DNA from: Minisyncoccia bacterium
GTDB taxonomy: Bacteria; Patescibacteriota; Minisyncoccia; Phycocordibacterales; Phycocordibacteraceae
NCBI GenBank assembly: GCA_050011835.1
Contig: JBEKII010000003.1
Span: forward strand, 39,842-103,841
Length of the DNA: 64,000 nucleotides
Direction of reading: 5' to 3'
Shown here: piece by piece, positions 4,696 to 39,264 of the stretch
How positions within the stretch are numbered: the stretch's first letter is position 1
How the letters are laid out: every line of letters starts with the position of its first letter
Program-made: the position numbers and the translations under genes
Notes under the pieces: model-generated
Database searches by the model: none
Seen by the model: only the letters and a program-made list of their open reading frames with translations
Told to the model about the DNA's origin: nothing

Positions 4696-5052
4696 ATGCA
4701 CATGCGCCAGCGCTTCTGTTTTTGTACGCTCGCGCTGTTGGAAGCGGATACGGAGATCCTCGCCGGTCACACCTTTCCTTTCCCTTCGCAAGTGATTGAA
4801 CTCCCTATCGCGAGTTCTGCGCCTCTTCTTTATTCAGTAGGAGAAATGACCGCAGCATATCAACCTGTCTCCGACGCGAAACTTTCTACGTCTGGTATGA
4901 GTACTAATGCAGTGCAGGTGGTCGAACCGATTATCAACTCAACGACAAATCCGCACACCAATGAAGAAGCAGTAAGCGCCCCCGCAGCGACGATAGGACT
5001 CGCCGCTGCGGGGGCGGCATTGCCTCCTTTGTCGCTTGTTAAATCTCCATGA
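4696..5052 (+). CDS. Hypothetical protein, 118 aa
   Basis: Only an ORF in the gap before the glycosyltransferase operon. The composition is Ala/Ser/Thr-rich and no family was recognised. Confidence 0.25.
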   Translation: MHMRQRFCFCTLALLEADTEILAGHTFPFPSQVIELPIASSAPLLYSVGEMTAAYQPVSDAKLSTSGMSTNAVQVVEPIINSTTNPHTNEEAVSAPAATIGLAAAGAALPPLSLVKSP

Positions 5053-5119
5053 ACTCTCGATTTTCTCGATGTCGTGCTCCTCTCGGGTGGGGCATTCATT
5101 CTTCTCTAATACTGATGGC

Positions 5120-6265: not shown

Positions 6266-6274
6266 AATATACCC

Positions 6275-7393: not shown

Positions 7394-8508
7394 AAGTCCT
7401 TTTCATATCCAATGACCCGAATATCTTTGACGCGGCGAGCGCCGTACGCATGCGTATGCGCACGTATGCCGCAGCGCTGAGGGAATTGCACATTCTTTCT
7501 CATGCGAATCGGGACGCGCATGAAGAAAAAGAAGAAAACCTCTTTCTGCATCCCGTGCACACGTCAAAATTATTCAGAACGCGCGCGCTCTCCGCGCGTG
7601 CGCATGCACTTGTCCTCGAGAACGCCATAGACATTGTCTCCGCGCAGGACCCTTTTGAGCATGGGCTCGCCGCTTTGCGCGCGATACGCGGCACGCCTGC
7701 GAAACTGCATGTGCAGGTGCATACCGACTTCCTTTCTCCATGGTTCGTGAACTGCGGCGTACGCATGTCTCTTCTGAATCGCTATCGTCGTCGCCTCGCT
7801 GACCGCGTTTTGCCCGCGGCGGCGGGGATTCGTGTCGTCTCGCAGCGGATAAAGGACTCGCTGATTGCGCGATACCATTTGCGCATTCCCAAACCGTCGG
7901 TCATCCCGATAGCCGTGAGCGGGACGCTGCCTTCTCCCGTGCCTTTGCCCGCGCATTCGTTCACGTTCACGCTTATCGCGGTCGGCCGATTGGAACCCGA
8001 GAAACGCGTTGAAGATATTTTTATCGCGCTCAAGCATATCGCCAAACAATATTCGATGGTCGGCCTTTTCGTCGTCGGAGAAGGTCGTTCGGGTGCGCGG
8101 CTCAAGCAAACGGCGCATTCCCTCGGGCTCGCGGATAGAATTATATTTCTCGGCGACCGCTCTGACGCGTGGGGATTGATGCGAAGCGCGCAGGCATTTA
8201 TTCAAGCGAGCGCGTATGAGGGCTACGGCCGCACGCTTGTTGAAGCGGCGCTCGCCCGCGTGCCGATTATCACCACCGATGTCGGTATTGTCGGCGATGT
8301 GTTCAAGAGTTATGAAGATGTCCTCTCCTCGCCCGTTGGCGACCCGATGGCGCTTGCGCGCAACATCACCAAATGCATTGAGGATGCCATGATGCGGTAT
8401 AAACTGCCGATGCATGCCGAGACCGTGGCGCGCGCACATCTCGCATCACAAGGGAATTTTGCAGAGCGCATACGGGACGATCTTATGCGTACATTTCAGA
8501 GCGTATGA
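7390..8508 (+). CDS. Glycosyltransferase family 4-like
   Basis: EGYGRTLVEAALARVPIITTDVGIVGDVF GT4-type motif. 4-nt ATGA overlap with the upstream gene. Confidence 0.7.
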   Translation: MKVLFISNDPNIFDAASAVRMRMRTYAAALRELHILSHANRDAHEEKEENLFLHPVHTSKLFRTRALSARAHALVLENAIDIVSAQDPFEHGLAALRAIRGTPAKLHVQVHTDFLSPWFVNCGVRMSLLNRYRRRLADRVLPAAAGIRVVSQRIKDSLIARYHLRIPKPSVIPIAVSGTLPSPVPLPAHSFTFTLIAVGRLEPEKRVEDIFIALKHIAKQYSMVGLFVVGEGRSGARLKQTAHSLGLADRIIFLGDRSDAWGLMRSAQAFIQASAYEGYGRTLVEAALARVPIITTDVGIVGDVFKSYEDVLSSPVGDPMALARNITKCIEDAMMRYKLPMHAETVARAHLASQGNFAERIRDDLMRTFQSV

Positions 8509-9590
8509 CAAAACAAGTTATCGTTTGCTTTTTTGGATACGACGAACGTGATGAGAGCGGGCGGACGTGGGCGATACGGACTGGATTGGCGGAAAATGAC
8601 GTTACGGTAAAGCCCTGCCGAACGCTCGTCGACGGATTTTTTGCGAAATATCATGACTTGTACCAAAAATGGAAAGGTATCACCGGAAATATTGATGCAC
8701 TCTATGTGATTTTTATGGGCTATTATCTCATGCCGCTTGCGTGGTGTCTCGCGCGCCGGCGGGGAATTCCCGTAATCCTCGACACGCTCATATCGCAATA
8801 CGATACCGAAGTCACTGACCGAAAACGTATATCTCGTTTCAGTCCGCATGCGTGGTTTTTATGGGGAGTCGACTGGGTATCCTGTGCCGTAGCCGATGCG
8901 ATAGTTGTCGACACGCACGAACATAAAAAATTTTTTACTGAAAAATTTTTCGTTAATGCGAAAAAAATACTCGTTGTTCCCGTCGGATGCCGTTCCGATC
9001 TTTTTATACCGCTTCCTCATTTGAGGGAATCGGAAGGTTATTTTATTGTTGAATTTCATGGGTCGTTTATTCCGTTGCATGGCATCGAGTACATCATGGA
9101 AGCGGCAAAAATCCTGCAGGAGAAGCACGAAAAGGTTCATTTCAAGATCGTCGGCATGGGGCAATTGTTCGTTGCAATTACATCAATGGCCCAGAAGCTT
9201 CGACTATTCAATGTTGAATTTCTCGGCAGGGAACCGCTCAAAGAGCTCCCTTATTCCATTGCTCGCGGCGATGTGAGCCTCGGCATATTCGGGGCGACTC
9301 CCAAAGCCCTGCGCGTTATTCCGAATAAAGTCTATGAGTCTCTCAGTTGTGGAAAACCGGTGATTACCGAGCGATCGCCGGCGGCGCTTGAAGTACTGCA
9401 CGATTACGAAGGGGTATGTATGGTGGAGCCGGGTAATGGCGTTGCTCTCGCGGAAAAAATTCTTGAACTGAAATGCGATGTAGTCCTACGCACCCAGCTT
9501 AGTGAACGCGCCCGCGCAATTTCATTGAATCAGTTTTCTCCACGCGCGATCGCGAAGCCTCTGGTAGACTGGCTCAAATCACACGCATGA
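8505..9590 (+). CDS. Glycosyltransferase, GT-B fold (GT4-like)
   Basis: SLSCGKPVITERSPAALEVL C-terminal GT-B motif. ATGA overlap with neighbours on both sides. Confidence 0.55.
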   Translation: MTKQVIVCFFGYDERDESGRTWAIRTGLAENDVTVKPCRTLVDGFFAKYHDLYQKWKGITGNIDALYVIFMGYYLMPLAWCLARRRGIPVILDTLISQYDTEVTDRKRISRFSPHAWFLWGVDWVSCAVADAIVVDTHEHKKFFTEKFFVNAKKILVVPVGCRSDLFIPLPHLRESEGYFIVEFHGSFIPLHGIEYIMEAAKILQEKHEKVHFKIVGMGQLFVAITSMAQKLRLFNVEFLGREPLKELPYSIARGDVSLGIFGATPKALRVIPNKVYESLSCGKPVITERSPAALEVLHDYEGVCMVEPGNGVALAEKILELKCDVVLRTQLSERARAISLNQFSPRAIAKPLVDWLKSHA

Positions 9591-12903: not shown

Positions 12904-13956
12904 ATGGCGAAAGTAGTCCTGATTACGGGTTCTGCGGGACTGATCGGCTCGGAATCGGCCCGTTTTTTTGCTGGGAAAAGGTACCAAATAGTTGGCGTGG
13001 ACAATGACATGCGCAAGTATTATTTTGGCGAAGGCGCAAGCACACAGTGGAACCGAAAACAGCTCGCGAAAGAACTTGGAGCACGGTACCGACACTATGC
13101 TGCGGATATACGAGATCGCGAGCGAATTGAAAGGATCGTTAAAAAATATTCGCCCGATATCGTCATCCACACAGCTGCCCAACCGAGTCACGATTGGGCC
13201 GCGAAAGAGCCGCACACGGATTTTACTGTTAATGCTCTCGGTACGCTCGTGTTGCTTGAAAGCGTCCGGCAATTCGCACCGAGAGCAACGTTCATTTTCA
13301 CCTCAACAAATAAAGTGTACGGCGACCAACCGAACCACCTGCCGCTCATCGAAACCGACACAAGGTGGGAGATCGAACCAAGCCATGCTTTTTACCAAGG
13401 CATCGATGAGTCGATGAGCATCGACCAAACGCTTCACAGTGTTTTTGGAGCTTCCAAAGTTGCCGCCGATGTGATGGTGCAGGAATATGGAAAATATTTC
13501 GGACTAAAGACAGGTGTATTTCGAGGCGGATGTCTTACCGGCCCGAACCACAGTGGCGCGCAACTCCACGGTTTTCTTTCTTATCTGGTGAAGTGTATTG
13601 CTACGGGAGCTCCTTATACTATTTTGGGCTATAAGGGGAAACAGGTACGGGATAATATCCACGCGAGCGATCTTGTGAATATGTTTTGGCATTTCCACCA
13701 AAATCCGCGATCGGGCGAGGTGTATAACGCCGGCGGAGGGCGGCAAGCGAACATCTCTATGCTTGAGGCGATCGCAAAGGTAGAAAAACTCACCGGCAAA
13801 AAAGCGGACATCGTGTATAACGATACACCGCGCGTTGGAGATCATATCTGGTATATTTCCGATCTTAGAAAGTTCAAATCGCACTATCCGAAATGGAATA
13901 TTGTCTACGATATAGATGCGACATTGCGGGACCTGTGCGCACACGTGCGTTCCTAG
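12904..13956 (+). CDS. NAD-dependent epimerase/dehydratase (extended SDR; CDP-paratose 2-epimerase-like)
   Basis: [11 protein letters not shown] Rossmann motif and [15 protein letters not shown] (YxxxK). Confidence 0.75.
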
Positions 13957-13967
13957 CCATATTCTCC

Positions 13968-15044
13968 ATGAAATATCAACATATACTTGTAACAGGCGGA
14001 TGCGGATTCGTCGGTTCTTCTCTCGCATTGCGGCTAAAAGAAAAATTTCCCCAAAGTAGTATTACCGTTGTCGATAATCTTGTACGCAAAGGTTCCGAAC
14101 TTAATAAAGTTCGTTTGCTTAGGGCAGGTGTCGAGTGTCGAGATGGTGACGTGCGATATGCCGAAACGTTCAAACCTCTCGGTTCGGTTGATTTGATTAT
14201 CGATTGTGCCGCAGAGCCGTCGGTGTTGGCGGGGAAAGACGGCTCGCCTCTTTATGTACTTGAAACAAACTTGTGGGGAACGATACATATGCTCGAACTT
14301 GCTCGGCGCACCAATGCGGCTGTGATGTTTCTTTCAACGAGCCGGGTGTATCCGATTCGCGAATTGAATGCGATTAACGTGATCGAAACCGATACGCGAT
14401 TTAGAATAGCTCCTGATCAAATAATGTCGGGCATCACAGAGCGTGGCATAAACGAAGCATTTCCGATGGGTACGGAGCGGACGCTGTATGGCGCTACCAA
14501 ACTTGCTTCAGAAATGTTTATCACGGAATACGCGCTTCTCTATGGCATACGCGCCATCATTAACAGATGTGGAGTTATTGCGGGGCCGTGGCAGTTCGGT
14601 AAGGTTGACCAAGGTATCGCGGTACTTTGGATGGCGCGGCATATATTCCCAAACAAAAAGCTCGCATATGTCGGATGGGGGGGAAAGGGGAAACAGGTAC
14701 GGGATTTTCTTCATCCCGACGACCTATTTAATGCGCTTGCCTATCAGTTGGAGCATTTTGGTGTTCTCGCAGGAAGCGTGTTTAATCTCGGCGGCGGAAC
14801 AGAACGAAGCGTATCGCTTCTTGAACTTACGCGGATATGCGAAAAGATAAGTGGCCGGAGCATCGGCATCGGCTCGATGTCGGAGACCCGCTGGGGAGAT
14901 GTAAAACTCTACATTTCCGACAATGTGCGCTTCGAAAAACTTTCAGGTTGGAGGCCGAAGCGCGACATTGAAACCATCATGGGCGATATTCACGAATGGC
15001 TCATCACTAATAAGGACATGCTGGCGCCCATCTTCGCTACATAA
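13968..15044 (+). CDS. NAD-dependent epimerase/dehydratase (paralog of the upstream gene; CDP-paratose 2-epimerase-like)
   Basis: Start taken at the internal ATG (MKYQHILVTGGCGFVGSSLA). YGATKLASEMFITEY (YxxxK). Overall colinear with the preceding gene. Confidence 0.75.
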   Translation: MKYQHILVTGGCGFVGSSLALRLKEKFPQSSITVVDNLVRKGSELNKVRLLRAGVECRDGDVRYAETFKPLGSVDLIIDCAAEPSVLAGKDGSPLYVLETNLWGTIHMLELARRTNAAVMFLSTSRVYPIRELNAINVIETDTRFRIAPDQIMSGITERGINEAFPMGTERTLYGATKLASEMFITEYALLYGIRAIINRCGVIAGPWQFGKVDQGIAVLWMARHIFPNKKLAYVGWGGKGKQVRDFLHPDDLFNALAYQLEHFGVLAGSVFNLGGGTERSVSLLELTRICEKISGRSIGIGSMSETRWGDVKLYISDNVRFEKLSGWRPKRDIETIMGDIHEWLITNKDMLAPIFAT

Positions 15045-15048
15045 TAAT

Positions 15049-16833
15049 ATGAGTATGACTAAAGCAAAAAGATTTTTTCAGCAGCATCGTCCCGCTGTCG
15101 TGCTCATGGTCATTATTCTCGTGCTCACTACGATTCCGGTTATTGATACGTTTCTCGTTCTCGGAAATGCCTGGCAAGGATTTCCCCCGTCCTTCGGTGA
15201 CGAGACCATGTATTTCGCGCACATGCATACCATAGCGGAAGGATATGTGAACGACGGGAATCCCTATTTTTTGGAACACCGCAATGACCCTCCGCTAGTC
15301 ATTTTCGGAGGAGCCTGGTTGAACGCAGTGCCACTTCTTGCCGGCATCCCGTTTGATGCGGCGCTGATGTTCAATTTCATCATCTGGAGTTTGGCGTTCG
15401 CCGCACTTTTCTATTGGCTGTTTCGAGAATGGAGGGTACCGCGGTGGATCGCCGTAGCCAGCACGGTGTTTCTATATCTGCAATCGTATGAGCACGTGTG
15501 GCGGGCAGTGAATCTTCAGACGGTATATCCGTTCTTTTTCTTGTTTCTCATCGCACTTACCCGTTTTCTCCGTGAACGAAGTCGCAAGAACATAGGACTG
15601 CTCGCGGCGGCGACAGCTCTTTCGTTTTACTTTTTCTCATATTTATGGCAGACGGTCGTCATCACACTCGGGATTCTGGCACTTTATGCTCTGGTAAGAA
15701 AAAATTGGAAATTGCTGAAAGCGACGCTCCTTTCGTCAATCATCGGGGGTATTATCGGTCTACCTGTACCGCTCCTCATGCTCTGGCTTTCCCGTTCTTC
15801 GCCGTATTTTTGGGAAAGTATCGGTCGTCTCGGGCTCGTGAATACGCATCTACCCATGGCCGAAGTTGTGTATTCTGGCGGATGGATCGGCGTCGCGCTC
15901 GCTTTTCTCGCACTGCTCTATTGGCGCATGCGAACACTGCGAAAGGATACGGAATTCATGTCGCTATTTCTATTCCTCGGTATAAGCGGTTTAGGCATCT
16001 GGATTATGCAAGGCAGCAACCTCATCACCGGCAAATTGCTCGAGACGGGAGAGCATATGCGGGCATTTATCGCTCCGTGGCTCGTATTCGCCACCGTGCT
16101 TCTGGGAATATATCTCTACAAGCGGCGCGCGCAGCTTACGCGAAAATGGCGATGGTTTTCGGTGATTGTCATTGCGGCGTGTTCAATTGCGAGCATTCTT
16201 TTCTTCAATCTCTACGGTCCTTTTATTAATCCAGAAACAAATAGTGAGTTCTGGTACACCGAGCAGTTATATGTCAAACCTCTCGCATGGCTTGACAAAA
16301 CAGAAAAAAATCCAGTTGTCGTGTGGAGCGACCCGGTCAACGATGAGATTACGGGCGTCCTTCCTGTGTTTACCAAACACTTTACGCTTTTTACGACCGC
16401 CGCGACATGGGAATTGGTGTCTGAAAGCGAAATTCGCGAGCGGTATCTTATTTCGCAATATTTTAACAATCCGACCGTTGACTCTCTTAAAGCCAATATG
16501 TCGGTCTATCTTGGGCGACAGGATGCGTATCATCGCGCCGCGACAATTGACCGTAGCGTAAAGATTTGTCGCACAATGTACTTTTGGGACAAAAATAAGA
16601 ATTGCGGCATACTTCTTACTCCGGCGGAATTGCTCGGCGATAAATTTTTTGCCAATCTTGAGCAAGAATTTCAAACCGATATCAAGCCAAACATAAAAAT
16701 GTATTTGAAAAAATATCACGTCTCCTACATCCTTAAAGACGATATCCTTGATCCGCAGTATCATCCTGAAAAATTGGGCGCCATGCGTGTCTACAACGAC
16801 GGCCGCTTTGAGATTTATCGGGTGCAGTATTAA
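15049..16833 (+). CDS. Polytopic membrane protein with C-terminal soluble domain; putative GT-C-type membrane glycosyltransferase
   Basis: Start at the internal ATG (MSMTKAKRFF). About 10 predicted hydrophobic segments over the first ~430 aa are followed by a ~160 aa hydrophilic tail. Sits among GtrA/GtrB-like genes. Confidence 0.4.
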   Translation: MSMTKAKRFFQQHRPAVVLMVIILVLTTIPVIDTFLVLGNAWQGFPPSFGDETMYFAHMHTIAEGYVNDGNPYFLEHRNDPPLVIFGGAWLNAVPLLAGIPFDAALMFNFIIWSLAFAALFYWLFREWRVPRWIAVASTVFLYLQSYEHVWRAVNLQTVYPFFFLFLIALTRFLRERSRKNIGLLAAATALSFYFFSYLWQTVVITLGILALYALVRKNWKLLKATLLSSIIGGIIGLPVPLLMLWLSRSSPYFWESIGRLGLVNTHLPMAEVVYSGGWIGVALAFLALLYWRMRTLRKDTEFMSLFLFLGISGLGIWIMQGSNLITGKLLETGEHMRAFIAPWLVFATVLLGIYLYKRRAQLTRKWRWFSVIVIAACSIASILFFNLYGPFINPETNSEFWYTEQLYVKPLAWLDKTEKNPVVVWSDPVNDEITGVLPVFTKHFTLFTTAATWELVSESEIRERYLISQYFNNPTVDSLKANMSVYLGRQDAYHRAATIDRSVKICRTMYFWDKNKNCGILLTPAELLGDKFFANLEQEFQTDIKPNIKMYLKKYHVSYILKDDILDPQYHPEKLGAMRVYNDGRFEIYRVQY

Positions 16834-25147: not shown

Positions 25148-27058
25148 ATGCAGGACAAGAATCCTTATACTATAATCCTCCTCTACGAATTGGGGCACGC
25201 CAAGGAGCTTGAACGTTTTTGGCGCGAGCGACCTGAGGAGGGGAAAGCCGTTTCGCTCGTGGTGGCGCTTACTCCGGATGTGGAAAAGGAGTTGAGAGAA
25301 CGAGGCGTCACTTTTTCTTCGGGGCGCGATTATCGTCCGCTTGATGCGAGCCGTTTTATGTTGGCAGAAAAATGGACGTCCGAGATGTTTGAGAGTTCGG
25401 AGTGGAAATGGTTTCGGTATCGTAATCTGCATCTCTCGCAGATGTTTTCCGTCCCCATTCAATTTTATTTCGTCCAGTTACTCTATTATGGAGCAATTGT
25501 AGAGAATTTGTTTGTAAAACACCAAAGTATACGCCGGTTGGTGGTGTTTCCTTCGCTCCAATCCGTTCCTCGTAGAGGCAGAGCTCTTGAACGCGAACGA
25601 ATCGCCGCGGTAGTCGCCTGTGCAAAGCTCATAGGAGCACGCCATGGAGTTGACGTTATTATACCGCGAACGATTGCATCTGCGAAACGTGTCCGTACGG
25701 GATCATTATTCTTTTCGTTCAAGCGAGCATTTTTGGAGTGTGGAGTAAATATCTGGAACATATGCGTTGGCATGCTTCGTCCACGCGGCGCTCCGCGTAT
25801 TCTCGCGTCCGATTACTGGCGGAATATCGCGCCGATCATGTCACGTCTGCCACGAGGGGAACTTATGTTATTTGACCGCGGGGAAGCGCTTAAAGCCGGT
25901 TTAGAGAATATGTGGCGATTCAGAATACGCCTTTTTAACTTCAGCTCTTTCTCTCTGCATCGCAGGAGGGCGGAGCGCGCAGAGACGCAAAAATTGTTTG
26001 AGGAACGATGGCGCTTTCTTCGTCGTGACGGGCTTCCGGACTATTCCTCAGGCGGATTCTCATTGCGCCCGCTTCTTACTGAAGCGTTAGACGGCATATT
26101 TTTGCGCGAAGTGCCCAAAACACTTCGTGATATTGATGGCGCGTATGAGATGTTGAAAACACTCGCGCCTAACATGGTATTTTTGCGTGCGAGCGTGAGC
26201 GCGCAGACGCACTTTTATATTCTCGCGACGGTTGCTCGTATGTGCGGCATTCCCTCATTGGAACTCCAGCATGGGCTAGAATATCTCGGCTCCGGTTCCG
26301 TAAGCAAACAGCACGGTGCCGAATATATCGCTGTGTACGGGCGGGTAACACAGGATGAATTTGCTGCTCTCGGGTTCCCTCGCGAGAGATTCCCCATCGT
26401 GGGTTCTCCAAGATTTGATGCCTATAAAAGAGAAGCTGTCCTCGCGCATCGAGTTCGCCGCGAGGGCGAAGGAATATCCGTTCTGTGTATCGGATTTGCC
26501 GTAAGCGTGGAATGGTTCTATGACGACTACGACCTGGAGGAATATTACTCTGCGGTCGCTCAAGCTCTTGAGAAGATTCCCAACAGTTCTGCGATTATCA
26601 AGCTGCGTCCCGGTTCGTTCCGCGAGAGCTCGTGCCGTTCTACGATTGATACCATATTCGCTCGAGTATCGCATACTATCGCCCACGACGAGCCATTTTC
26701 AGAACTTTTTGCTTCCGCGGATATCGTTGTTTCTTATTTTTCCACGGTTGTTTTGGAAGCGCTTCAATTTAATAAGCCCACTATTGTCTTCAGCGCTCAA
26801 GCAATGGAAAGAGAGTGCATCCGTTTTCATCTCACACAGTACGCGGACGCGGGCGGACTCATCGTCACCTATACGCAGGAAGAACTCGAGATCGCATGCC
26901 GTTCGCTCGCGAACGACGAAGCTTTACGCAAGCGCCTGGCACGAGGCGCAGAGAAAGTGCTTACGCAACTCTACTCATTTGATGGCAAGGCCTCAGAGCG
27001 TATAGTGGCTCTTATTGAGCGGCTTGCGCAGAAACAAAATGAACATGGAAGCGATTGA
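25148..27058 (+). CDS. Large polysaccharide-biosynthesis protein with C-terminal TagB/TagF-like (CDP-glycerol glycerophosphotransferase family) domain, putative
   Basis: The C-terminal region AIIKLRPGS...ADIVVSYFSTVVLEALQFNKPTIVF parallels Glyphos_transf motifs (K-x-H-P...aDvLITDYSSv.fDf...kPiif). The N-terminal half was not recognised. Confidence 0.4.
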   Translation: MQDKNPYTIILLYELGHAKELERFWRERPEEGKAVSLVVALTPDVEKELRERGVTFSSGRDYRPLDASRFMLAEKWTSEMFESSEWKWFRYRNLHLSQMFSVPIQFYFVQLLYYGAIVENLFVKHQSIRRLVVFPSLQSVPRRGRALERERIAAVVACAKLIGARHGVDVIIPRTIASAKRVRTGSLFFSFKRAFLECGVNIWNICVGMLRPRGAPRILASDYWRNIAPIMSRLPRGELMLFDRGEALKAGLENMWRFRIRLFNFSSFSLHRRRAERAETQKLFEERWRFLRRDGLPDYSSGGFSLRPLLTEALDGIFLREVPKTLRDIDGAYEMLKTLAPNMVFLRASVSAQTHFYILATVARMCGIPSLELQHGLEYLGSGSVSKQHGAEYIAVYGRVTQDEFAALGFPRERFPIVGSPRFDAYKREAVLAHRVRREGEGISVLCIGFAVSVEWFYDDYDLEEYYSAVAQALEKIPNSSAIIKLRPGSFRESSCRSTIDTIFARVSHTIAHDEPFSELFASADIVVSYFSTVVLEALQFNKPTIVFSAQAMERECIRFHLTQYADAGGLIVTYTQEELEIACRSLANDEALRKRLARGAEKVLTQLYSFDGKASERIVALIERLAQKQNEHGSD

Positions 27059-28109
27059 TATAACAAAAGTGACCGAAGCACCTAAACTCTGGCAAGATAT
27101 AGTGGATGCGTCTAACGACGGATGGATTTGGCATACATGGTTAGCGCACGAATTTAATCTCTGCGCAAGAGAGAAATTCAAAGCCGAGGACAACTCTTTT
27201 TTTATTTATGAAAACGAGGAAGCGGTGGGAGTTGTCTCGCTTATCATTCAAGAAGGAAGCATCGGTAACTTTAAAGAATGCGAAGTGCCATAGCCTTGTT
27301 TCCGCGCCGGTCTTAAGCCGGAGCGTGCATCGGCACTTGAGACCTTTGCATTTACAGAACTCGAACAGCGTGCTCGACGTGCAAGGACCGGCCGAGCATC
27401 CGTTTTAATGATTCCACCGATGAACCAAGGTAATGAAAGAGAACGAGTAGCGCGCGTAGCTTCAGAACATAATTATCTTTATTTCCCTTTGAGTTTCCAT
27501 GAGGTTAACGTGAGTCCCAATGCTCTCGAGGCGGCGCGTACACATTATGACTATAAGCATTTCTCATCATTCTTTACAATTACTGTTACGACAGGTTCCG
27601 AAGTGACAGACGTTCTTGAGGAGACATACTTTAAACTTCACACAAAAGATGCCGGGGGCCAGTTCCGTTCACGTCTGAGCTATAAAAAGCAAGCGGATAT
27701 CGCGAGGCAAGGAATGGGTTTTTATGTTGTCGCTCGGCACAATGAAAGTAGCAACGTTGCAGGGATGGCTCTCATAAACTGTTATAAGGGTGCGGCGTAC
27801 TATAATTCAGTAGCCGTTGACCCTGTATTCCAGAAACTGTGTGTGGGATATCAGTTGCAGTGCCGCGCTATTGAGGAATTGTTGCGCCGCGGCATCCTGC
27901 TCTACGACCTCGGATCAAGAGAAGACATTTCAACATGGCATGCGCTCACGTCGGAGAAAAAGCGTGGCATTGCTCGTTTCAAGGATAAATTTTCCCACCA
28001 TCAATCGCGTGACATCTACTATATAGAAAAATTTTTAGATATGGAATTTTTTCATGCATATCTGGAATCACGGGAGGCTTCACTCAAAGAGTATTTTGGG
28101 CTATCCTGA
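27015..28109 (+). pseudogene. FemAB-family (GNAT-fold, peptidyl/aminoacyl transferase-like) gene interrupted by one in-frame TAG (27291-27293)
   Basis: Track ORFs 27015-27293 and 27408-28109 are in the same frame. The intervening 114 nt translate without further stops (PCFRAGLKPERASALETFAFTELEQRARRARTGRASVLMIPP). The 3' part has the FemAB-like GMALINCYKGAAYYNSVAVDP motif. Combined length ~365 aa, typical for the family. Confidence 0.55.
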
Positions 28110-28120
28110 ACATATGCACC

Positions 28121-28996
28121 ATGAATGAACGAAAGGGAAAACAAAAAGCGAAGAAGCTTTACGATCAGGAAGCTGGGGGTTATATCAAGCAGTACCAAGA
28201 AAATTATGAAGAGTATCCTGCCAACCTCATACGAATACAGTTTGTTATTGAAAGGCTAAAAAAGAATAATGTCAAAACAATTTTGGACGTTGGTTGCGGT
28301 ACCTGCGGACCAATGATCAAACTTCTTACAAACGGCTTTGTCGTTAAGGGTTTTGATTTTTCAAAAAAGATGATTGAGCAGGGCAGAGAAGAACTCCAGA
28401 AAGCTGGCTACGACCCTGAATTAATTCAAGTTGGTGATTTAGAGGATAAATCGGCTTTTTCAAATGAAAAATTTGACGCGATAATTGCTTTGGGCGTTTT
28501 CCCTCATATCGTGGATGAGCAGAGGGCACTATCCCATATGCGGAAGTTGTTGAATCCTGGCGGCCTGGTCTTTATTGAGTTCAGGAACGAATTGTTTGCT
28601 GTATATACTTTCAACAAATATTCTCTTGAATTTTTCACACAGAAGCTCATTAATGTACATTCCTTACCTCGAGATATCAGTACTGATGTAATGAATTTTT
28701 ATTCAAAAAAGTTTAAAGCCGGTACTATTGCCAAGAAAAAAGATGGCAAAATAGCTTATGCAGATACGCTGGCTAAGTTCCGCAACCCATTAAGCATAGG
28801 AAACGAATTATTCAATCCATGCGGTTTTTCTATTGCTAATCTGCATTTTTATCATTATCATGCACTCCCGCCCGTTTTTGAAAATAGATATCCAAAAATA
28901 TTCAGGGAATTAAGTCTAAAGTTGGAGAAAACCAATGACTGGAAGGGATATCTGATGGCCTCGGCTTTTGTTGTTGAGGCGAGAAGAACAGATTAG
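28121..28996 (+). CDS. Class I SAM-dependent methyltransferase
   Basis: ILDVGCGTCG motif I. 291 aa. Noticeably lower GC than flanking genes. Confidence 0.75.
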   Translation: MNERKGKQKAKKLYDQEAGGYIKQYQENYEEYPANLIRIQFVIERLKKNNVKTILDVGCGTCGPMIKLLTNGFVVKGFDFSKKMIEQGREELQKAGYDPELIQVGDLEDKSAFSNEKFDAIIALGVFPHIVDEQRALSHMRKLLNPGGLVFIEFRNELFAVYTFNKYSLEFFTQKLINVHSLPRDISTDVMNFYSKKFKAGTIAKKKDGKIAYADTLAKFRNPLSIGNELFNPCGFSIANLHFYHYHALPPVFENRYPKIFRELSLKLEKTNDWKGYLMASAFVVEARRTD

Positions 28997-29011
28997 ATTG
29001 AAATATAAAAT

Positions 29012-30289
29012 ATGGAAAAAGGAATAGGCAAAGGAATGTACGAACTCATAGAACGACTGTTTCCTCTCTGTAGAAGCATCACAGGACCCGGCACAAGGGA
29101 AACATTAAGAATAATTCAAAAGTCCATCCCGATTCAGATATATGAGGTGCCGACAGGGACAAAAGTGTTCGATTGGACCGTTCCTAAAGAATGGAATATA
29201 AGGGATGCATATATAATGGATGCAGAAGGGAAAAAAATTGTTGACTTCAAGAAAAACAATCTTCATATTGTCGGGTATTCTGTCCCGGTCAACAAACGTA
29301 TTTCTCTTTCAGAACTGCAAGAGCACTTATATTCGCTCCCGGACCAGCCAGAGGCCATTCCTTATGTTACTTCGTATTATGAAGAAAGATGGGGCTTTTG
29401 TATTTCGCAGATAGTCAGAGAAAAGCTTAAAGAAGGGGAATATACCGTTTTTATTGACAGCGAATTAAAAGACGGCTCATTGACGTACGGTGAACTTATC
29501 ATTCGCGGGGAATCTAAAAAAGAAATTTTCATCTCAACGTATGTATGCCATCCCTCAATGGCGAATAATGAACTCTCTGGCCCCGCGGTGACGACATTTT
29601 TAGCGAAATGGATTTTGAGCAAACCAAGGCGGTTTACGTATCGCATCATATTTATACCTGAAACCATTGGTTCGATAACCTATTTAAGAAAAAATATAAA
29701 AGTGATGAAAAGGAATACAATCGCCGGTTTTAACGTAACATGTGTCGGCGATAATAGAGCATACAGTTATCTTCCAACGAGAGCCGGCGACACCTATACC
29801 GATAGAGTTGCCTTAAATGTACTGTTATTTAAACAACCAGATTTTATTACATACTCTTTTCTTGATAGAGGAAGTGATGAACGACAATACAATGCGCCGG
29901 GAATTGATCTCCCCGTTTGTTCTGTGATGAGAAGCAAATACGGAACATATCCGGAATACCATACGTCATTGGATAATCTAAATGTGGTGAACCCGGAAGG
30001 ATTGTCAGGAGCGTATGAAATATTGAGAGAATGCCTCACGCTTATTGAAGAAAACCGCACATATAAAATAAACTGTTTGGGAGAACCGCAACTGGGGAAA
30101 AGAGGGTTATATCCCACCATCAGCACAAAATCTTCCGGGAATGAAGTAACAAACATCATGAATTTTATCGCTTATGCTGATGGGGAAAATGATCTACTAG
30201 ATATCAGCAATGAAACGAAAACCCCGGTGTGGGAGTTATATCCAATTATTGGAAAATTAATGAAAGCGGGTTTATTGACAATAGTTTGA
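29012..30289 (+). CDS. DUF4910 / M28 aminopeptidase-like domain protein (polysaccharide-cluster associated), putative
   Basis: 425 aa. Resembles aminopeptidase-like domain proteins common in O-antigen/nonulosonate clusters. Assignment is from memory of family-level features only. Low GC. Confidence 0.35.
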   Translation: MEKGIGKGMYELIERLFPLCRSITGPGTRETLRIIQKSIPIQIYEVPTGTKVFDWTVPKEWNIRDAYIMDAEGKKIVDFKKNNLHIVGYSVPVNKRISLSELQEHLYSLPDQPEAIPYVTSYYEERWGFCISQIVREKLKEGEYTVFIDSELKDGSLTYGELIIRGESKKEIFISTYVCHPSMANNELSGPAVTTFLAKWILSKPRRFTYRIIFIPETIGSITYLRKNIKVMKRNTIAGFNVTCVGDNRAYSYLPTRAGDTYTDRVALNVLLFKQPDFITYSFLDRGSDERQYNAPGIDLPVCSVMRSKYGTYPEYHTSLDNLNVVNPEGLSGAYEILRECLTLIEENRTYKINCLGEPQLGKRGLYPTISTKSSGNEVTNIMNFIAYADGENDLLDISNETKTPVWELYPIIGKLMKAGLLTIV

Positions 30290-30350
30290 TTATTATCAAA
30301 AAATTATCACGTACTTGCTATAACAAAATATTTGTGTAATATTATTCTTT

Positions 30351-31364
30351 ATGAATCTTGAGCAGCTCAAGGGTAAAACGGTGTTGATTACCGGCGGCAC
30401 CGGTTCTTTTGGTAAGAATTTTGCCAAACACATTCTCGCCGGTTCAAAACTGAAAAAACTCATTATATTTTCTCGTGACGAATTGAAACAGTCGCAAATG
30501 GAAGCGGAGATACGCGACGAGCGCATTCGTTTTTTTATCGGCGATGTGCGCGACCTTTCGCGATTGGAACGGGCTTTCCACGGCGTCGATATCGTTATAC
30601 ATGCCGCAGCGCTCAAGCAGGTACCTGCGCTTGAATACAATCCATTTGAAGCGGTGAAAACGAACATTCTCGGCAGTCAGAACGTCATTGAAGCGGCGCT
30701 CGACCAAAATGTGAAGAAAGCCATACTTGTATCAACCGATAAGGCAGTGATGCCAATTAATCTTTACGGGTCTACCAAATTATGTGCCGAGAAGCTTTTC
30801 ATCGCGGGCAATGCATACAGTGCAGGGAAGACGCATTTCAGCGTCGTCCGATACGGAAATGTTGTCGGTAGTCGCGGTAGTGTCATTGAAAAGTTGATGC
30901 TGAATAAAGATGCGCGCACCGTGCAAATAACCGACGAACGCATGACGCGTTTTTGGATAGACCTGAAGCAGGCGTTTCGCATTGTCCTATTCGCTCTGGA
31001 ACATATGGAGGGAGGAGAAATATTTATACCAAAAGCGCTATCAATGAAATTAACGGATCTTTTTGGTGTCCTTGCACCAAAAGCGAAACAGGACGTCATC
31101 GGTATTCGTCCGGGAGAGAAAGTGCACGAGGTATTGCTGACGAAAGAAGAGGCGCGCCACGCAGTGGGGCTTGAGGACTATTTTGTCATTTTGCCGGAAA
31201 ATATCAGCTCACTGAAACAAAAAAAAGGACTTCAGAAATTCCTGAAGCGAGGCAAACTGCTGAAATCCGATTTCCAGTTTTCGAGTAATGAGAGCGCCAA
31301 ACGCCTGTCGCAAAAGACGCTTCTTCGTCTGGTTGAGCAAATGGAAAGAACCTTGAGTCGCTAA
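30351..31364 (+). CDS. pseB: UDP-N-acetylglucosamine 4,6-dehydratase (inverting), PseB-like
   Basis: VLITGGTGSFGKNF...IFSRDELKQ...RFFIGDVRD...VIHAAALKQVP..EYNP.E..KTNI.G.QNV is nearly colinear with Campylobacter/Helicobacter PseB. YGSTKLCAEKLF (YxxxK). Confidence 0.85.
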   Translation: MNLEQLKGKTVLITGGTGSFGKNFAKHILAGSKLKKLIIFSRDELKQSQMEAEIRDERIRFFIGDVRDLSRLERAFHGVDIVIHAAALKQVPALEYNPFEAVKTNILGSQNVIEAALDQNVKKAILVSTDKAVMPINLYGSTKLCAEKLFIAGNAYSAGKTHFSVVRYGNVVGSRGSVIEKLMLNKDARTVQITDERMTRFWIDLKQAFRIVLFALEHMEGGEIFIPKALSMKLTDLFGVLAPKAKQDVIGIRPGEKVHEVLLTKEEARHAVGLEDYFVILPENISSLKQKKGLQKFLKRGKLLKSDFQFSSNESAKRLSQKTLLRLVEQMERTLSR

Positions 31365-32506
31365 TGATTCCTTACTCCACACAAAACATTAATGAGGAGG
31401 ATATCAAAGCGGTCGTGAAAGTACTGCGTTCAGGCTGGCTGACTCAAGGTCCCGCTATTGTGAGATTTGAAAAAGCCATTGCAAAAAAAGTTGGCACAAA
31501 ATTTGCGGTCGCTTTTAACTCCGGAACCGCCGCACTCCACGCAGCATATTTCGCCGCTGGAATAGGGAAGGAAGGTGAAGTCATCGTCCCCGCGCTTACC
31601 TTTGCCGCGACTGCCAATGCCGCGCTCTATCTCGGAGCGAAACCCGTCTTTGCGGATGTTGATCCCGAGACGGGGAACATGAGCGTGAGCGATGCGCGCA
31701 AAAAGATAACAAAAAAGACAAAAGCAATTATATCGGTCGACTATGGCGGCCGGCCGGCAGATTTGCGCGAATTCCGCGCACTTACAAAAAAACACAACCT
31801 TATTTTCATTGAGGATGCCGCACAAGCGTTTGGCGCGGAATATCGGGGTAAACCGGTTGGCACGCAAGCGGACATGACGATGTTCAGCTTTCATCCGGTA
31901 AAGTCCATTACCACGGGCGAGGGAGGCAGTATCGTGACGAACAGTCCAGTGTTTGAGGCGAGGCTTAAACTATTTCGCAGTCATGGTATCAGTAAAGACC
32001 CGAAAACATTTGCGCGGAAGAATTATGACGCATGGTATCAGGAAATGCAGGCGCTTGGATTCAATTATCGCATGCCAGAAATGTCCGCGGCTCTCGGCGA
32101 AAGCCAGTTGAGGCGCCTTGATTCTTTTATTGCAAAACGCCGCACGGTCGCTAAACGATATCAAAAGATATTAGAGAAGATTCCAAATCTCATGCTCCCG
32201 CCAGCCGAACGTGTTTATGAGAAATCAGCTTGGCATCTTTATCCGGTACGGCTTGCACCGAAAATTGCACGAAAGCGCGATGAAGTTTTTGCTAAAATGC
32301 GTAAGGCGGGTATTGGCGTACAAGTACATCATGTACCGGTCTACCGGCATCTTTTTTATGAAAAAATTGGTTACAAGAAAGGTCTTTGCCCCATCACCGA
32401 GACTTTCGTCGCATCCGAAATTTCTATCCCACTTTCCCCGAATATCACGCAGAAGCAACAAAAGTTTATCGCCACGACGCTGAAACATATTTTGGAATCC
32501 CTATGA
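31364..32506 (+). CDS. pseC: UDP-4-amino-4,6-dideoxy-N-acetyl-beta-L-altrosamine transaminase (DegT/DnrJ/EryC1 family), PseC-like
   Basis: DegT-family motifs. PLP-lysine context FSFHPVKSITTGEGG. Overlaps the pseB stop by 1 nt (TAATG). Confidence 0.8.
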   Translation: MIPYSTQNINEEDIKAVVKVLRSGWLTQGPAIVRFEKAIAKKVGTKFAVAFNSGTAALHAAYFAAGIGKEGEVIVPALTFAATANAALYLGAKPVFADVDPETGNMSVSDARKKITKKTKAIISVDYGGRPADLREFRALTKKHNLIFIEDAAQAFGAEYRGKPVGTQADMTMFSFHPVKSITTGEGGSIVTNSPVFEARLKLFRSHGISKDPKTFARKNYDAWYQEMQALGFNYRMPEMSAALGESQLRRLDSFIAKRRTVAKRYQKILEKIPNLMLPPAERVYEKSAWHLYPVRLAPKIARKRDEVFAKMRKAGIGVQVHHVPVYRHLFYEKIGYKKGLCPITETFVASEISIPLSPNITQKQQKFIATTLKHILESL

Positions 32507-35279: not shown

Positions 35280-35311
35280 GCAAAAGAATATAAATCTTGT
35301 ACTATCAGCGT

Positions 35312-36634
35312 ATGAAAAAGTCCCAAGGCACCGGGCAAAAGCTGTGGGAAAAGGCAAAGAAGCTCATTCCCGGCGGGAATCAGTTGCTTTCCAAGCGTGC
35401 GGAAATGTTTTTGCCGGAGCAATGGCCCGCTTATTATTCAAGAGCGAAAGGATGCGAAGTGTGGGATCTTGACGGTAATCGTTATGTAGATATGGGCAGA
35501 ATGGCGGTGGGGAGTTGCCTACTCGGTTATGCCGATCCGGATGTCAATAGGGCAGTGAAAGATGCGGTGGACCGCGGTTCAATGTCAACGCTGAATGCAC
35601 CCGAAGAAGTAGAACTTGCGGAGCTTTTGTGCAAAATACATCCTTGGGCGCATATGGCGCGCTTCGCGCGCGGTGGAGGAGAAGCAATGGCTATCGCGGT
35701 GCGCATCGCGCGCGCCTCTACCGGTCGTGACATCATTGCTTTTTGCGGTTATCACGGTTGGGCCGATTGGTATCTGGCGACAAATCTCGGTACAACCGAT
35801 GGGCTCAAAGAACATCTGCTCGCCGGGCTTGAAGCAAAAGGCGTACCGCAAGGGTTGCGCGGCAGTATTTTCCCTTTTCGCTACAATCATTTTGAAGAGC
35901 TTGAAGCGATCGTTAAGCACGCGGGCTCGCGACTTGCGGCGATTGTCATGGAACCGCTCCATAACGAAGAACCGAGAAATGATTTTCTTAAAAAAATTCG
36001 CACAATCGCCGACAGAGCCGGCGCTGCTCTTATTTTTGATGAAGTATCAATCGGCTGGAAGCTCACTTACGGAGGTGCACATCTTATATACGGTGTCAAT
36101 CCCGATATCGCCGTTTTCAGCAAAGCGATGAGCAACGGCTTCCCGATGGCGGCGGTTATCGGCACGCGCTCCGTGATGCAGGCGGCGCAGAATACTTTTA
36201 TATCAAGTACCTACTGGACTGACCGTACCGGCCCTGTAGCGGCACTTGCAACGCTTAAGAAAATGAAGAGATTGAATGTGCCGAAACGTATCGCCGCCGC
36301 GGCCGCGCAGATGCGCGCGGGCTGGGCAAGCATAGCAGAAAAACATGGACTGAAAATCAAAATCAGTGGACCGGTCGCCTATAATACGTTCTCTTTCCTC
36401 TCTGAAGACACACAGGCGCTGAGAACGCTCTTTACGCAGGAAATGCTTGAACGCGGATTTCTCGCGTCAACCGAATTCAATCCTTCCTGTGCCCATACTT
36501 CCGCGCATATCAAACGCTACATTCGTGCGCTCGACAACGTATTCGCCGAGATTCGTAAAGCAATAGACACTAACTCCGTACATAAACGTCTCAAAGGACC
36601 AATCGCACATTCCAACTTTGAACGTCTGAACTAA
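35312..36634 (+). CDS. Class III (glutamate-1-semialdehyde aminomutase-like) PLP-dependent aminotransferase
   Basis: Start at the ATG (MKKSQGTGQKLWE). AT-III family architecture. FDEVSIGWKLTYGG...FSKAMSNGFP (Lys in the SKA context). Confidence 0.75.
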   Translation: MKKSQGTGQKLWEKAKKLIPGGNQLLSKRAEMFLPEQWPAYYSRAKGCEVWDLDGNRYVDMGRMAVGSCLLGYADPDVNRAVKDAVDRGSMSTLNAPEEVELAELLCKIHPWAHMARFARGGGEAMAIAVRIARASTGRDIIAFCGYHGWADWYLATNLGTTDGLKEHLLAGLEAKGVPQGLRGSIFPFRYNHFEELEAIVKHAGSRLAAIVMEPLHNEEPRNDFLKKIRTIADRAGAALIFDEVSIGWKLTYGGAHLIYGVNPDIAVFSKAMSNGFPMAAVIGTRSVMQAAQNTFISSTYWTDRTGPVAALATLKKMKRLNVPKRIAAAAAQMRAGWASIAEKHGLKIKISGPVAYNTFSFLSEDTQALRTLFTQEMLERGFLASTEFNPSCAHTSAHIKRYIRALDNVFAEIRKAIDTNSVHKRLKGPIAHSNFERLN

Positions 36635-36682: not shown

Positions 36683-37219
36683 CTAATGACGCAGCCGCAG
36701 CATCGCGTCTATCTGCCCATAAGTTTTCACGAGAATGTCCTTTTGTTTACAGAACTTTAGGATTTCCTCGTGCATCTGGAGTTTCGGATCGTAATAGGGG
36801 ACAACATGCGGATGGAAGACGAGGGGGACAAATACCGTTTTCTCCACCTCATTCGCACGACGAAGCGCCTCTTCTAAGAGCTGAATGTAATATCCATTCA
36901 TTTTTGTTCCTCGAACGCTGAAGCTCTCTTCTTCCTCGTCAAAGACTAAAAGCTTTGTTGGTTGTACGAAGTGCACATCATAGGCACCGACCGCGGGAAT
37001 TTCGAGAATGTCCCCGAATCCTTCTTTGCTGTAGAAGAACGATGTCGTATTCTCGCCGGGCACGTTCCACTCTCGCTGTCCTGCCTTAAGCCATGAAGAC
37101 ACGTACCGAAGCCCATTGTTTCGTATCGCCTGAAGTATTTCGCGATTTTCGGAACCGAAGGGCTGAACATTTCCCATAGGCGTGCGCAACCCTATTGGTT
37201 GGACGCCAAGCCAGCGCAC
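36683..37219 (-). CDS. Hypothetical protein, 178 aa
   Basis: ORF only, with a terminator directly after its stop. No family recognised. Confidence 0.4.
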   Translation of the reverse strand: MRWLGVQPIGLRTPMGNVQPFGSENREILQAIRNNGLRYVSSWLKAGQREWNVPGENTTSFFYSKEGFGDILEIPAVGAYDVHFVQPTKLLVFDEEEESFSVRGTKMNGYYIQLLEEALRRANEVEKTVFVPLVFHPHVVPYYDPKLQMHEEILKFCKQKDILVKTYGQIDAMLRLRH

Positions 37220-37294
37220 GATCGTTTCATTCGCTTTCCGTAACTGTTCGTTGGCCTCGGAGCCGACAATCGTTCGCGAAAGTTTCTGTAATAC

Positions 37295-38254
37295 CTAACA
37301 TACCTCTTGAACACTTTTGAGCGGTGATTGTAACACGACCGACGAGACGTGATTTTGAAGTTTTTGCATAAGGTATTCTTTCGGCGTCTTTCCCTTAAGC
37401 GCCATGTGCGGACGTCTCTCATTGTACTCCCGCTCCCATCCTTGCAAGAGGCGTATGCAATGCTGGATTGATACGAAGCGGTTGATCCCATAGAATTCTT
37501 CTCCATCGGTGCGGTGCGACCGCTCCACCTTGCCGTTCTCTTCGGGAGAACGGATCTTAATTTTGCGATGGCTGATACCAAGGTCCTGCAAATGCCAGGA
37601 GAACTGTTCCGAAAACTCGGAGCCGTTGTCGGTCTGAATTTGTTTGATGGCGAACGGAAGTGCTTTTTGCACCTTGTCCACGAAATCAGCCGCATTCTTC
37701 ACGGTGTTGTGATCATAGATGCGGAGGACTCGGTATCTCGTGCAGTCATCGATGGCGGTGAACTGATAGTATCGCTTGCCCGCAAATGCTTCGGAATTAA
37801 GGAATTTAACGTCAACTTGTAGTCGATCACCCGGGAGTGGTTTTTCGTATCGTTGCGGATAGCGTTGCCATTTCTTCCTGTACGTCAGGCGGTTGAGACT
37901 GTGTTCTTTGTAGAGGCGCCAGATAGTGGTTTTGGAGACGAACCAGTTGTACTTCTGCTTCAGATGATACGACATGCGAACCGGACCGTACCCACGCTGA
38001 AGCCGTAGCTCGATAATCTTTTCTCGCACATCCTTTGGGAGCCATCGGTGAATTTTGTACGGTCGACACGACTTCGAGCGCAGCCCTTCTTCTCCGAGGC
38101 TCAGGTACCGGTGGTACCAGAAGTAGAAGGTGCCCCTCGCAATGCCGAAGTACCGGCATGTCGGGGCCACTTTCTTGGTGATGTTTTGATAACACTCGAT
38201 CCAGCGCAGGCGCTGTTGAGCACGAGGATCGTTAAGTACTTTTCTCGTTTCCAT
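37295..38254 (-). CDS. IS481-family DDE transposase (HTH + rve integrase core)
   Basis: N-terminal HTH (CRYFGIARGTFYFWYHRY). Catalytic DDE residues in QVDVKFL / YQFTAIDDCTR, IQTDNGSEF, and NGKVERSHRT. Confidence 0.85.
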   Translation of the reverse strand: METRKVLNDPRAQQRLRWIECYQNITKKVAPTCRYFGIARGTFYFWYHRYLSLGEEGLRSKSCRPYKIHRWLPKDVREKIIELRLQRGYGPVRMSYHLKQKYNWFVSKTTIWRLYKEHSLNRLTYRKKWQRYPQRYEKPLPGDRLQVDVKFLNSEAFAGKRYYQFTAIDDCTRYRVLRIYDHNTVKNAADFVDKVQKALPFAIKQIQTDNGSEFSEQFSWHLQDLGISHRKIKIRSPEENGKVERSHRTDGEEFYGINRFVSIQHCIRLLQGWEREYNERRPHMALKGKTPKEYLMQKLQNHVSSVVLQSPLKSVQEVC

Positions 38255-38310: not shown

Positions 38311-38398
38311 GGACACTATATTCGCAACACCCAGGCATTAAAGTTGCGAAGGTATTGAACCATTACGCTTGGCTGACAGGATGGGAAAAAGATGAAAG

Positions 38399-38439
38399 AA
38401 GAGCCGGACGGTAAAGACCTCCGGCTCTTTGTATTTTTA
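38399..38439 (+). terminator. Hairpin plus T-run (terminator-like) immediately downstream of the IS, followed by a TATAAT box at 38444-38449
   Basis: AGAGCCGGA-cggtaaagacc-TCCGGCTCT then TTGTATTTTTA. TATAAT lies 39 nt before the probable pseF start. Confidence 0.45.
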
Positions 38440-38487
38440 TGTTATAATGTTAATACGATATCGACACATCATTTATTGAGCGATATG

Positions 38488-39264
38488 TATATGCAAAAAA
38501 CTGTAGCTATCATTCAAGCGCGGATGGGCTCGACTCGGTTGCCCGGCAAAATTTTGAAGCCGATTTTAGGATGGCCGATGCTTGCACAAATGCTTGAACG
38601 CGTAAAACAAGCGAAAAAGATTGACGCAATTGTTGTCGCGACAACTGATAAGACAGAAGACGATGCCATTGCACAACTTGCGCAGGAATGCAGTGTCAAT
38701 TGTTTCCGCGGAGACGAAAACGACGTGCTGGATAGATTTTATAAGGCGGCCAAAGAAGCCGGTGCGAGCATTGTGGTACGGCTCACGGGCGATTGTCCGC
38801 TCCATGATCCTGCGGTCATTGATGAAGTCATTGGGCGCTTTTTGAACAATAAGCTTGATTATGCATGCACCCCTGTGAATTATCCCGAGGGATTAGATAC
38901 CGAAGTATTTTTATTTTCAGCGCTTGAACGCGCATGGAAGAGCGCGACATTGCCGTCCGAGCGCGAACATGTGACGCGATATATCCGCAATCACCCGGAA
39001 TTATTTAATGTTGGTGAGTTATGGAAACAAGGCGACTATGATTACTCCGTTATGCATTGGTCGGTGGATACCGAACAGGATTTTGATTTTGTGACAAAAG
39101 TATTTGAGCAACTTTATCCGGTCAATCCACGTTTTAACAAAGACGATGTGTTTGAATTGCTCGCACGGCGGCCGGAACTTCTGGAGATAAATAAAGGAGG
39201 TACTGGATATGAGGGTTTAGCAAAATCTTTGAAAGAGGATATGGTTGTAAAAAGTCATCTATGA
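38488..39264 (+). CDS. pseF: Acylneuraminate/pseudaminic acid cytidylyltransferase (CTP_transf_3, SpsF/PseF-like)
   Basis: AIIQARMGSTRLPGKILKPI N-terminal nucleotide-binding motif and LTGDCPL. The start is uncertain: the track ORF begins at 38392, but that stretch overlaps the hairpin/-10 and reads as non-family sequence. Confidence 0.65.
   Translation, partial: YMQKTVAIIQARMGSTRLPGKILKPILGWPMLAQMLERVKQAKKIDAIVVATTDKTEDDAIAQLAQECSVNCFRGDENDVLDRFYKAAKEAGASIVVRLTGDCPLHDPAVIDEVIGRFLNNKLDYACTPVNYPEGLDTEVFLFSALERAWKSATLPSEREHVTRYIRNHPELFNVGELWKQGDYDYSVMHWSVDTEQDFDFVTKVFEQLYPVNPRFNKDDVFELLARRPELLEINKGGTGYEGLAKSLKEDMVVKSHL

Follow-up and report, generated by a model that had tools for sequence, protein, structure and literature searches.

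A probably very young nonsense allele of a FemX-like transferase gene in the surface-glycan island of a Minisyncoccia bacterium

A single in-frame TAG interrupts one gene

We analysed 64,000 nucleotides of contig JBEKII010000003.1 from a Minisyncoccia bacterium (the whole stretch is hereafter called the window), in which a gene for a FemX-like tandem-GNAT transferase is interrupted by one in-frame TAG. We consider it about 80% probable that this TAG marks a very young nonsense allele in a single FemX-like gene whose intact allele segregates alongside it, and that it represents ordinary loss of function. The coordinates of the gene, its fragments, its variable sites and its neighbours are collected in Table 1.

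On the plus strand, the stop lies in the context GAA GTG CCA TAG CCT TGT TTC. In the translation of 26901-28109, the preceding stop (27003-27005) and the terminal TGA (28107-28109) enclosed a single internal stop, and two open reading frames (ORFs), 27015-27293 (92 aa, with a TTG start) and 27408-28109 (233 aa), share this frame. When P0001, the nearest intact orthologue, was compared with the window by tblastn, it aligned as one segment from 27039 to 28103 with 69% identity and ran through the stop; the 114 nt (38 codons) between the two ORFs are therefore coding, as a preliminary description made from the sequence had proposed. The same search matched no other part of the window, which thus contains no compensating paralogue. 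From the TAG to 27408 there was no in-frame start codon, and no Shine-Dalgarno-like sequence was seen before 27408 when the sequence was read by eye.

The true start of the gene is most likely the ATG at 27039 (MNMEAIDITK...), because the N-termini of the orthologues agree with it (MDIQAIDISK in P0001) and because the resulting 20-nt overlap with the upstream gene is also found in the orthologous locus L003. The frame from this start comprises 356 codons, somewhat fewer than the approximately 365 residues given in the preliminary description.

A search of a large protein collection returned 49 homologues, the best of which had 69% identity, 100% coverage and a length of 362 aa. The closest full-length homologues were 362-363 aa long, were 63-69% identical and covered the whole query, and the 44 homologues retained in the alignment were uninterrupted proteins of about 320-394 aa. 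In nearly all of the orthologous loci, the FemX-like gene was likewise recovered as one uninterrupted tblastn segment, and only the most distant locus (L017) gave two. Two genuinely separate small genes were ruled out, given that every homologue is one protein; a comparison of orthologues had been suggested as a way to reveal such a pair, and the orthologues turned out to be single genes, in loci L002-L016 as well as among the protein matches.

Table 1. Features of the FemX-like gene and its surroundings in the window
Feature	Position	Strand	Basis or remark
FemX-like tandem-GNAT transferase gene, broken by one nonsense codon	27039..28109	+	Frame, homologues, tblastn, fold
Premature TAG, from TGG (Trp) via G-to-A at 27292	27291..27293	+	Alignment with W92 of P0001; L020 and L001 have G
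N-terminal fragment, 82 aa from ATG 27045 (gene finders) or 84 aa from ATG 27039	27045..27293	+	JGI contig and NCBI MGD0328616.1
C-terminal remnant ORF (233 aa) with the second GNAT domain, annotated apart as GNAT N-acetyltransferase	27408..28109	+	JGI 233 aa; NCBI MGD0328617.1, 229 aa from ATG 27420
Junction where 21 nt that all other homologues have are cleanly deleted in frame	27285..27287	+	
T7 tract	27197..27203	+	T6 (frameshift) in L001
G in window and L020	27439	+	C in L001 (Arg to Thr missense)
A5 tract	27957..27961	+	A4 (frameshift) in L001; A5 in L024
LIC12162-like/glycerophosphotransferase-like transferase, 636 aa; end overlaps FemX-like start by 20 nt	25148..27058	+	Also adjacent to the FemX-like gene, with an overlap, in orthologous loci
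Class I methyltransferase, ends in TAG	28121..28996	+	Profile match, stop census
DUF4910/DUF2172/HTH_47 gene	29012-30289		Between methyltransferase and PseB
PseB (30351-31364) and PseC (31364-32506)	30351..32506	+	TIGR03589, 424.2 bits (cut-off 407.75); TIGR03588, 479 bits (cut-off 423.5)

Alleles of the gene and origin of the stop

The codon occupied by the TAG corresponds to the tryptophan of an LPWP motif, which was invariant in 44 of 44 homologues. The cluster of this gene at 90% identity had six members. The contig L020 (JGI 3300038429 Ga0427951_013055, 5,404 bp), from a sibling metagenome, could be compared with positions 25232-30635 of the window and differed by one mismatch, a G at 27292 where the window has an A. 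It encodes P0053, an intact 354-aa protein equal to the window translation with tryptophan in place of the stop. A second contig, L001 (JGI 3300018013 Ga0187873_1035087, 2,313 bp), also has a G at 27292 and thus TGG, together with three more differences that are all within the gene. A third, L024 (Logan SRR13021941), which was found by exact-protein look-up of both neighbouring genes, was identical to the window over 27848-30615 and stops short of the TAG.

The TAG allele itself was present in two assemblies, as the 82-aa N-terminal product was found both on the JGI counterpart of the window's contig (3300037993 Ga0427919_0000369, 118,805 bp) and on a 109,891-bp contig of a Minisyncoccia metagenome-assembled genome (MAG) at NCBI, where the 229-aa 'GNAT family N-acetyltransferase' adjoins it and the two carry the locus tags ABSB00_02815/02820. 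L020 and L001 are two other assemblies. A metagenome-wide pattern scan for further alleles around the TAG returned only L001, and a contig search with the NCBI 229-aa product found no contig.

The comparison indicates that TGG is ancestral and that TAG was derived from it by one G-to-A transition, and a recent nonsense mutation, the option that the preliminary description had listed first, was thereby borne out. Because, outside position 27292, the gene and 4.3 kb of flanking sequence match the intact allele exactly, the lesion is regarded as very young.

By codon comparison, purifying selection has acted on the gene for practically the whole of its history. Between the window and the nearest intact orthologue, the nonsynonymous divergence (dN) was 0.19 and the synonymous divergence (dS) was about 3.1; the long-term dN/dS was below about 0.06, a ratio of limited use given that dS is saturated. 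The dN between the window and L002 (0.245) was close to that between L003 and L002 (0.230), with no long-term acceleration of the window lineage.

A second change in the gene is older than the stop. Directly before the LPWP motif, the window lacks seven residues (AxYYSGF) of which the A and the YY are conserved in at least 90% of the homologues, and this deletion is common to all three alleles, the intact one included. Paired compensating frameshifts in place of a 21-nt deletion were ruled out by codon-level comparison. The window protein also deviated at 8 of 72 highly conserved columns, as against 0-2 in its closest relatives. The enzyme of this lineage was accordingly already atypical, because of the 7-residue deletion and the changes at conserved columns.

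Expected consequences and weight of the evidence

TAG serves as a regular stop codon in this genome. Of the 57 non-overlapping ORFs of at least 100 aa in the window, TGA terminates 25, TAA 17 and TAG 15; the frames 5036-6265 and 12904-13956, whose stops at 6263-6265 and 13954-13956 had already been cited as genuine, do end there, and the next gene downstream, 28121-28996, ends in TAG as well. A recoded genome was ruled out by this census, and translation should for the same reason end at the TAG.

In the assembled strain, a single G-to-A transition would thus have turned the invariant tryptophan codon into a stop, and only 84 residues would be translated; this would leave the first GNAT domain unfinished, with the greater part of domain 1 absent, and domain 2 would be lost altogether. 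Tandem-GNAT enzymes form a cleft between their two domains, as known from FemX, and the 233-aa domain-2 fragment would be left with only half of this cleft. The TAG allele is therefore most likely null. The strain would be without the enzyme, and its glycan would miss a modification or a modified sugar; both the loss of activity and the change in the surface glycan are expected from the lesion and the gene context.

Loss-of-function variants are common in O-antigen and capsule tailoring genes, and the allele resembles the young pseudogenes and segregating nonsense alleles of bacterial surface-polysaccharide loci in that one point mutation disables a conserved tailoring gene while near-identical strains carry the intact allele. 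It differs from such pseudogenes elsewhere in that it belongs to an uncultured bacterium of the Candidate Phyla Radiation (CPR) known from metagenome assemblies alone. Among near-identical CPR strains, loss of function appears to be a source of variation in surface-glycan tailoring genes.

The most immediate meaning is for annotation. The 82-aa hypothetical protein and the 229-aa or 233-aa 'GNAT N-acetyltransferase' that NCBI and JGI list separately are the halves of one disrupted gene, and both deserve a flag as pseudogene or null allele.

Several points weigh against the reading as a young null allele. The alleles are known from assemblies, and a consensus error at 27292 is unlikely but possible; both TAG-carrying contigs may also stem from the same reads. 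The TAG may have arisen in a gene whose enzyme was already altered or impaired, given the seven lost residues and the deviating conserved columns, in which case it would represent the decay of an already dispensable gene. Finally, low-level near-cognate readthrough of UAG followed by C may occur, yet it would not restore the tryptophan.

Alternative explanations

The alternative that survives best, although on balance unlikely, is a recurrent and selected loss of function in which losing the enzyme is advantageous under some conditions, for example where phage or host recognise the surface glycan, and independent null alleles arise and spread beside the intact one, with mutational on/off variation in the population as the result; it would refine the reading as a young nonsense allele and is not exclusive of it. 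Three alleles exist among contigs that are at least 99.8% identical: the intact one in L020, the nonsense one in the window, and one with a double frameshift and a missense change in L001. The four differences are confined to the 1,071-bp gene, and the flanks are free of them; judged from length only, the joint probability of this is about 0.02. Three of these changes are disabling and there is no synonymous one, where random substitutions in this ORF would be nonsense in 5% and synonymous in 22% of cases, and an insertion sequence (IS)-like element lies in the same island. These numbers are tiny, with four events on three contigs, and a very similar pattern would be expected from neutral decay of a dispensable gene, whether that decay followed a first hit or the shared deletion. 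Indels in homopolymers, moreover, are both mutational hot spots and typical sequencing errors, L001 is a short contig of 2.3 kb, and the overlap has 20 homopolymers of 5 nt or longer, 8 of which fall in the gene, so that two indels there are not unusual. The three alleles thus give a weak hint of recurrent loss.

In its boldest form, which we consider distinctly unlikely, a near-clonal Minisyncoccia population would repeatedly and independently knock out the FemX-like gene, through a nonsense codon in one lineage and frameshifts in another while an intact allele persists, with selection by phages or by the host cell to which these episymbionts attach favouring the mutational switching of an aminoacyl or acyl decoration of a surface glycan on and off. 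If true, this would be a population-level contingency mechanism acting through mutation in a CPR episymbiont, an organism for which we know of no phase-variation systems.

Sequencing or assembly error is improbable in our estimate. It would mean that the organism has TGG and that the A at 27292 is a consensus artefact; this is a single-base difference from the otherwise identical L020. The occurrence of the same truncated product in two assemblies argues against it, as does the rarity of consensus substitution errors in long, presumably well-covered contigs.

Classical phase variation, that is, a reversible slipped-strand switch at a repeat tract, had also been listed in the preliminary description and is very improbable. 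L001 does differ from the window at two in-gene homopolymers, the T7/T6 and A5/A4 tracts, but the TAG of the window arose by a base substitution that lies in no repeat. For contingency loci, which usually have longer tracts, these two are short, and the two frameshifts of L001 occur together in one contig, 760 nt apart, and do not restore the frame between them, so that L001 is no simple toggle.

Programmed readthrough or recoding, in which the TAG would be decoded by a suppressor tRNA, as pyrrolysine or through its context to give full-length enzyme at a regulated level, is scarcely credible: the frame beyond the stop is intact and the C at 27294 was confirmed, a C after the stop being a weak termination context in E. 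coli, but the stop is not conserved (tryptophan in all 44 homologues, TGG in both near-identical alleles), the downstream sequence of the intact allele is identical so that a dedicated signal cannot have evolved, near-cognate readthrough of UAG would not insert the tryptophan that is invariant there, the predicted RNA fold of 27285-27400 was no better than that of shuffled sequences (z of -0.35), and the window contained neither tRNA genes nor matches to Rfam families, which also ruled out a nearby suppressor tRNA or known RNA element.

Fold and likely function of the intact protein

The gene product is predicted to be a FemX-like tandem-GNAT transferase, with two GNAT-like domains in one enzyme. 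The AlphaFold2 model of P0001, built with the 44-sequence alignment, had a mean predicted local distance difference test score (pLDDT) of 94.3 and a predicted template modelling score (pTM) of 0.91, and its best match in the PDB by Foldseek was the FemX of Weissella viridescens (1ne9; E of 2.8e-15, template modelling (TM) scores of 0.66/0.70). The matches to 1ne9 and 4ii9 had E of about 1e-14 to 1e-15 and TM scores of 0.64-0.70. The next matches were FemX 6snr, Sba18/Sbb17, the aminoacyl-phosphatidylglycerol synthases (aaPGS)/MprF and FemA, which are aminoacyl-tRNA-dependent tandem GNATs. Such enzymes made up much of the top 20 fold matches, and some acetyl-CoA-using tandem GNATs were also among them.

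Sequence profiles placed the protein less clearly. The window protein scored 22.7 bits against PF13480 (Acetyltransf_6), a marginal pass at the cut-off of 22, and 23.4 bits against PF00583 (cut-off of 20.7), and PF13480 was recorded for the majority of the homologues. Against Pfam FemAB (PF02388), it reached 15.8 bits, below the cut-off of 24. The sole NCBIfam match of P0053 and P0001 was TIGR04421 (FemAB_IMCC1989), with an E of about 2e-8 in the C-terminal domain and a score of 33.8 bits against a cut-off of 250, and hence the protein is no member of that equivalogue. A search of the PDB with the family profile gave only a weak RimI-type GNAT match in domain 2, and the fold search was needed for placement. 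The family assignment is thus based on the fold and on the marginal PF13480 match. The preliminary label 'FemAB/GNAT-type transferase' is right at the level of fold, because the model best matches FemX; the interruption by a lone TAG also held, and membership in Pfam FemAB proper did not.

The fold is shared with FemX of W. viridescens (1ne9, 4ii9), with FemA (1lrz) of S. aureus and with FemX 6snr, Sba18/Sbb17 and the C-terminal domains of aaPGS/MprF, all with two GNAT-like domains in about 360 aa. The window family has only 11-15% sequence identity to FemX-type enzymes of known structure, and its gene is found in a glycan island with PseB and PseC rather than in peptidoglycan cross-bridge synthesis. 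TIGR04421 is a hypothetical equivalogue for a FemAB protein of a polysaccharide cluster, and the orthologue in L003 is adjoined by a PLP_IMCC1989-type aminotransferase. PseH occupies a similar niche, being a GNAT-fold enzyme for acyl transfer whose gene lies near those of PseB and PseC, but it is a single-domain GNAT using acetyl-CoA, whereas the window protein is a tandem GNAT of the FemX type. A literature search on FemAB-type enzymes in nonulosonic-acid or polysaccharide clusters found nothing relevant.

The PseB and PseC equivalogues make UDP-4-amino-4,6-dideoxy-N-acetyl-beta-L-altrosamine, and the product of this pathway carries a free 4-amino group. It may be the source of an amino-sugar acceptor, and the chemistry that we propose is aminoacyl or acyl transfer onto this 4-amino group or onto a related amino sugar. 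The conserved gene neighbourhood points to an amino-sugar acceptor, with a peptidoglycan precursor such as UDP-MurNAc-pentapeptide or lipid II as the alternative considered. Aminoacyl-tRNA is a putative donor, suggested by the resemblance of the fold to aminoacyl-tRNA-dependent enzymes. The intact family is an uncharacterised FemX-fold subfamily, conserved beside PseB/PseC-type amino-sugar genes across several phyla, and tRNA-dependent aminoacylation of a nucleotide sugar is a plausible candidate role for it, which does not hinge on the TAG.

Among the window ORFs scanned, none was found to encode a nonulosonic acid synthase of the PseI/NeuB type. Use of the 4-amino sugar may bypass pseudaminic acid, or the remaining genes may be located elsewhere.

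Genomic neighbourhood

The window is chromosomal, as it encodes a Mur ligase, MurB, SecA, Obg and GatB. About 40 kb of it constitute a surface-glycan island with many glycosyltransferases of families GT4, GT2 and GT9, epimerases, dehydratases, a PMT_2 protein, an ABC exporter and a Wzy_C/O-antigen-ligase-like protein.

In the orthologous loci L002, L004, L006 and L007, the FemX-like gene is directly 3' of the LIC12162-like gene. In loci from MAGs of Saccharibacteria and other Patescibacteria, Bdellovibrionales, Acidobacteriota and Alphaproteobacteria, PseB/PseC, a class III aminotransferase (Aminotran_3), a CTP_transf_3 cytidylyltransferase and an aldo-keto reductase are encoded within a few kb of it. 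The Saccharibacteria MAG locus L007 contains two FemX-like paralogues (6001-7011 and 7721-8716), which are about 700 nt apart and have 49% and 42% identity to the window protein, respectively. Two LIC12162-like genes lie upstream of them, suggesting duplication and diversification of the gene pair.

The IS-like element of the island comprises a transposase gene on the minus strand at 37295-38254, with rve/rve_3 integrase core and HTH_28/HTH_32 matches, and an adjoining unannotated 178-aa ORF at 36683-37219. This pair sits between a class III aminotransferase gene (35297-36634) and a CTP_transf_3 cytidylyltransferase gene (38392-39264), and it looks like an IS insertion because these two flanking genes are directly adjacent in L002 and L004. 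No clear terminal inverted repeats were found at 36683-38254.

The GC content was 0.389 at 28001-30000, compared with about 0.49 around it, in a region spanning the methyltransferase gene and the DUF4910 gene. The DUF4910 gene has no counterpart at the same position in L002 and may be a laterally acquired insert.

Other features of the window

Also within the glycan island, a 636-aa ORF at 14923-16833 had no Pfam match at an E of 1e-5 or less and is unrelated to the equally long LIC12162-like protein encoded upstream of the FemX-like gene. Just upstream of the island, a TrwB/TraG-like type IV secretion coupling protein of 579 aa is encoded at 2935-4674. At the other end of the window, a stop-free frame of 7,815 nt on the plus strand extends from 56186 to 64000 and past the window end, indicating a giant gene with 2,600 codons or more; long ORFs appear to be absent after 55.6 kb because this frame is cut by the window end.

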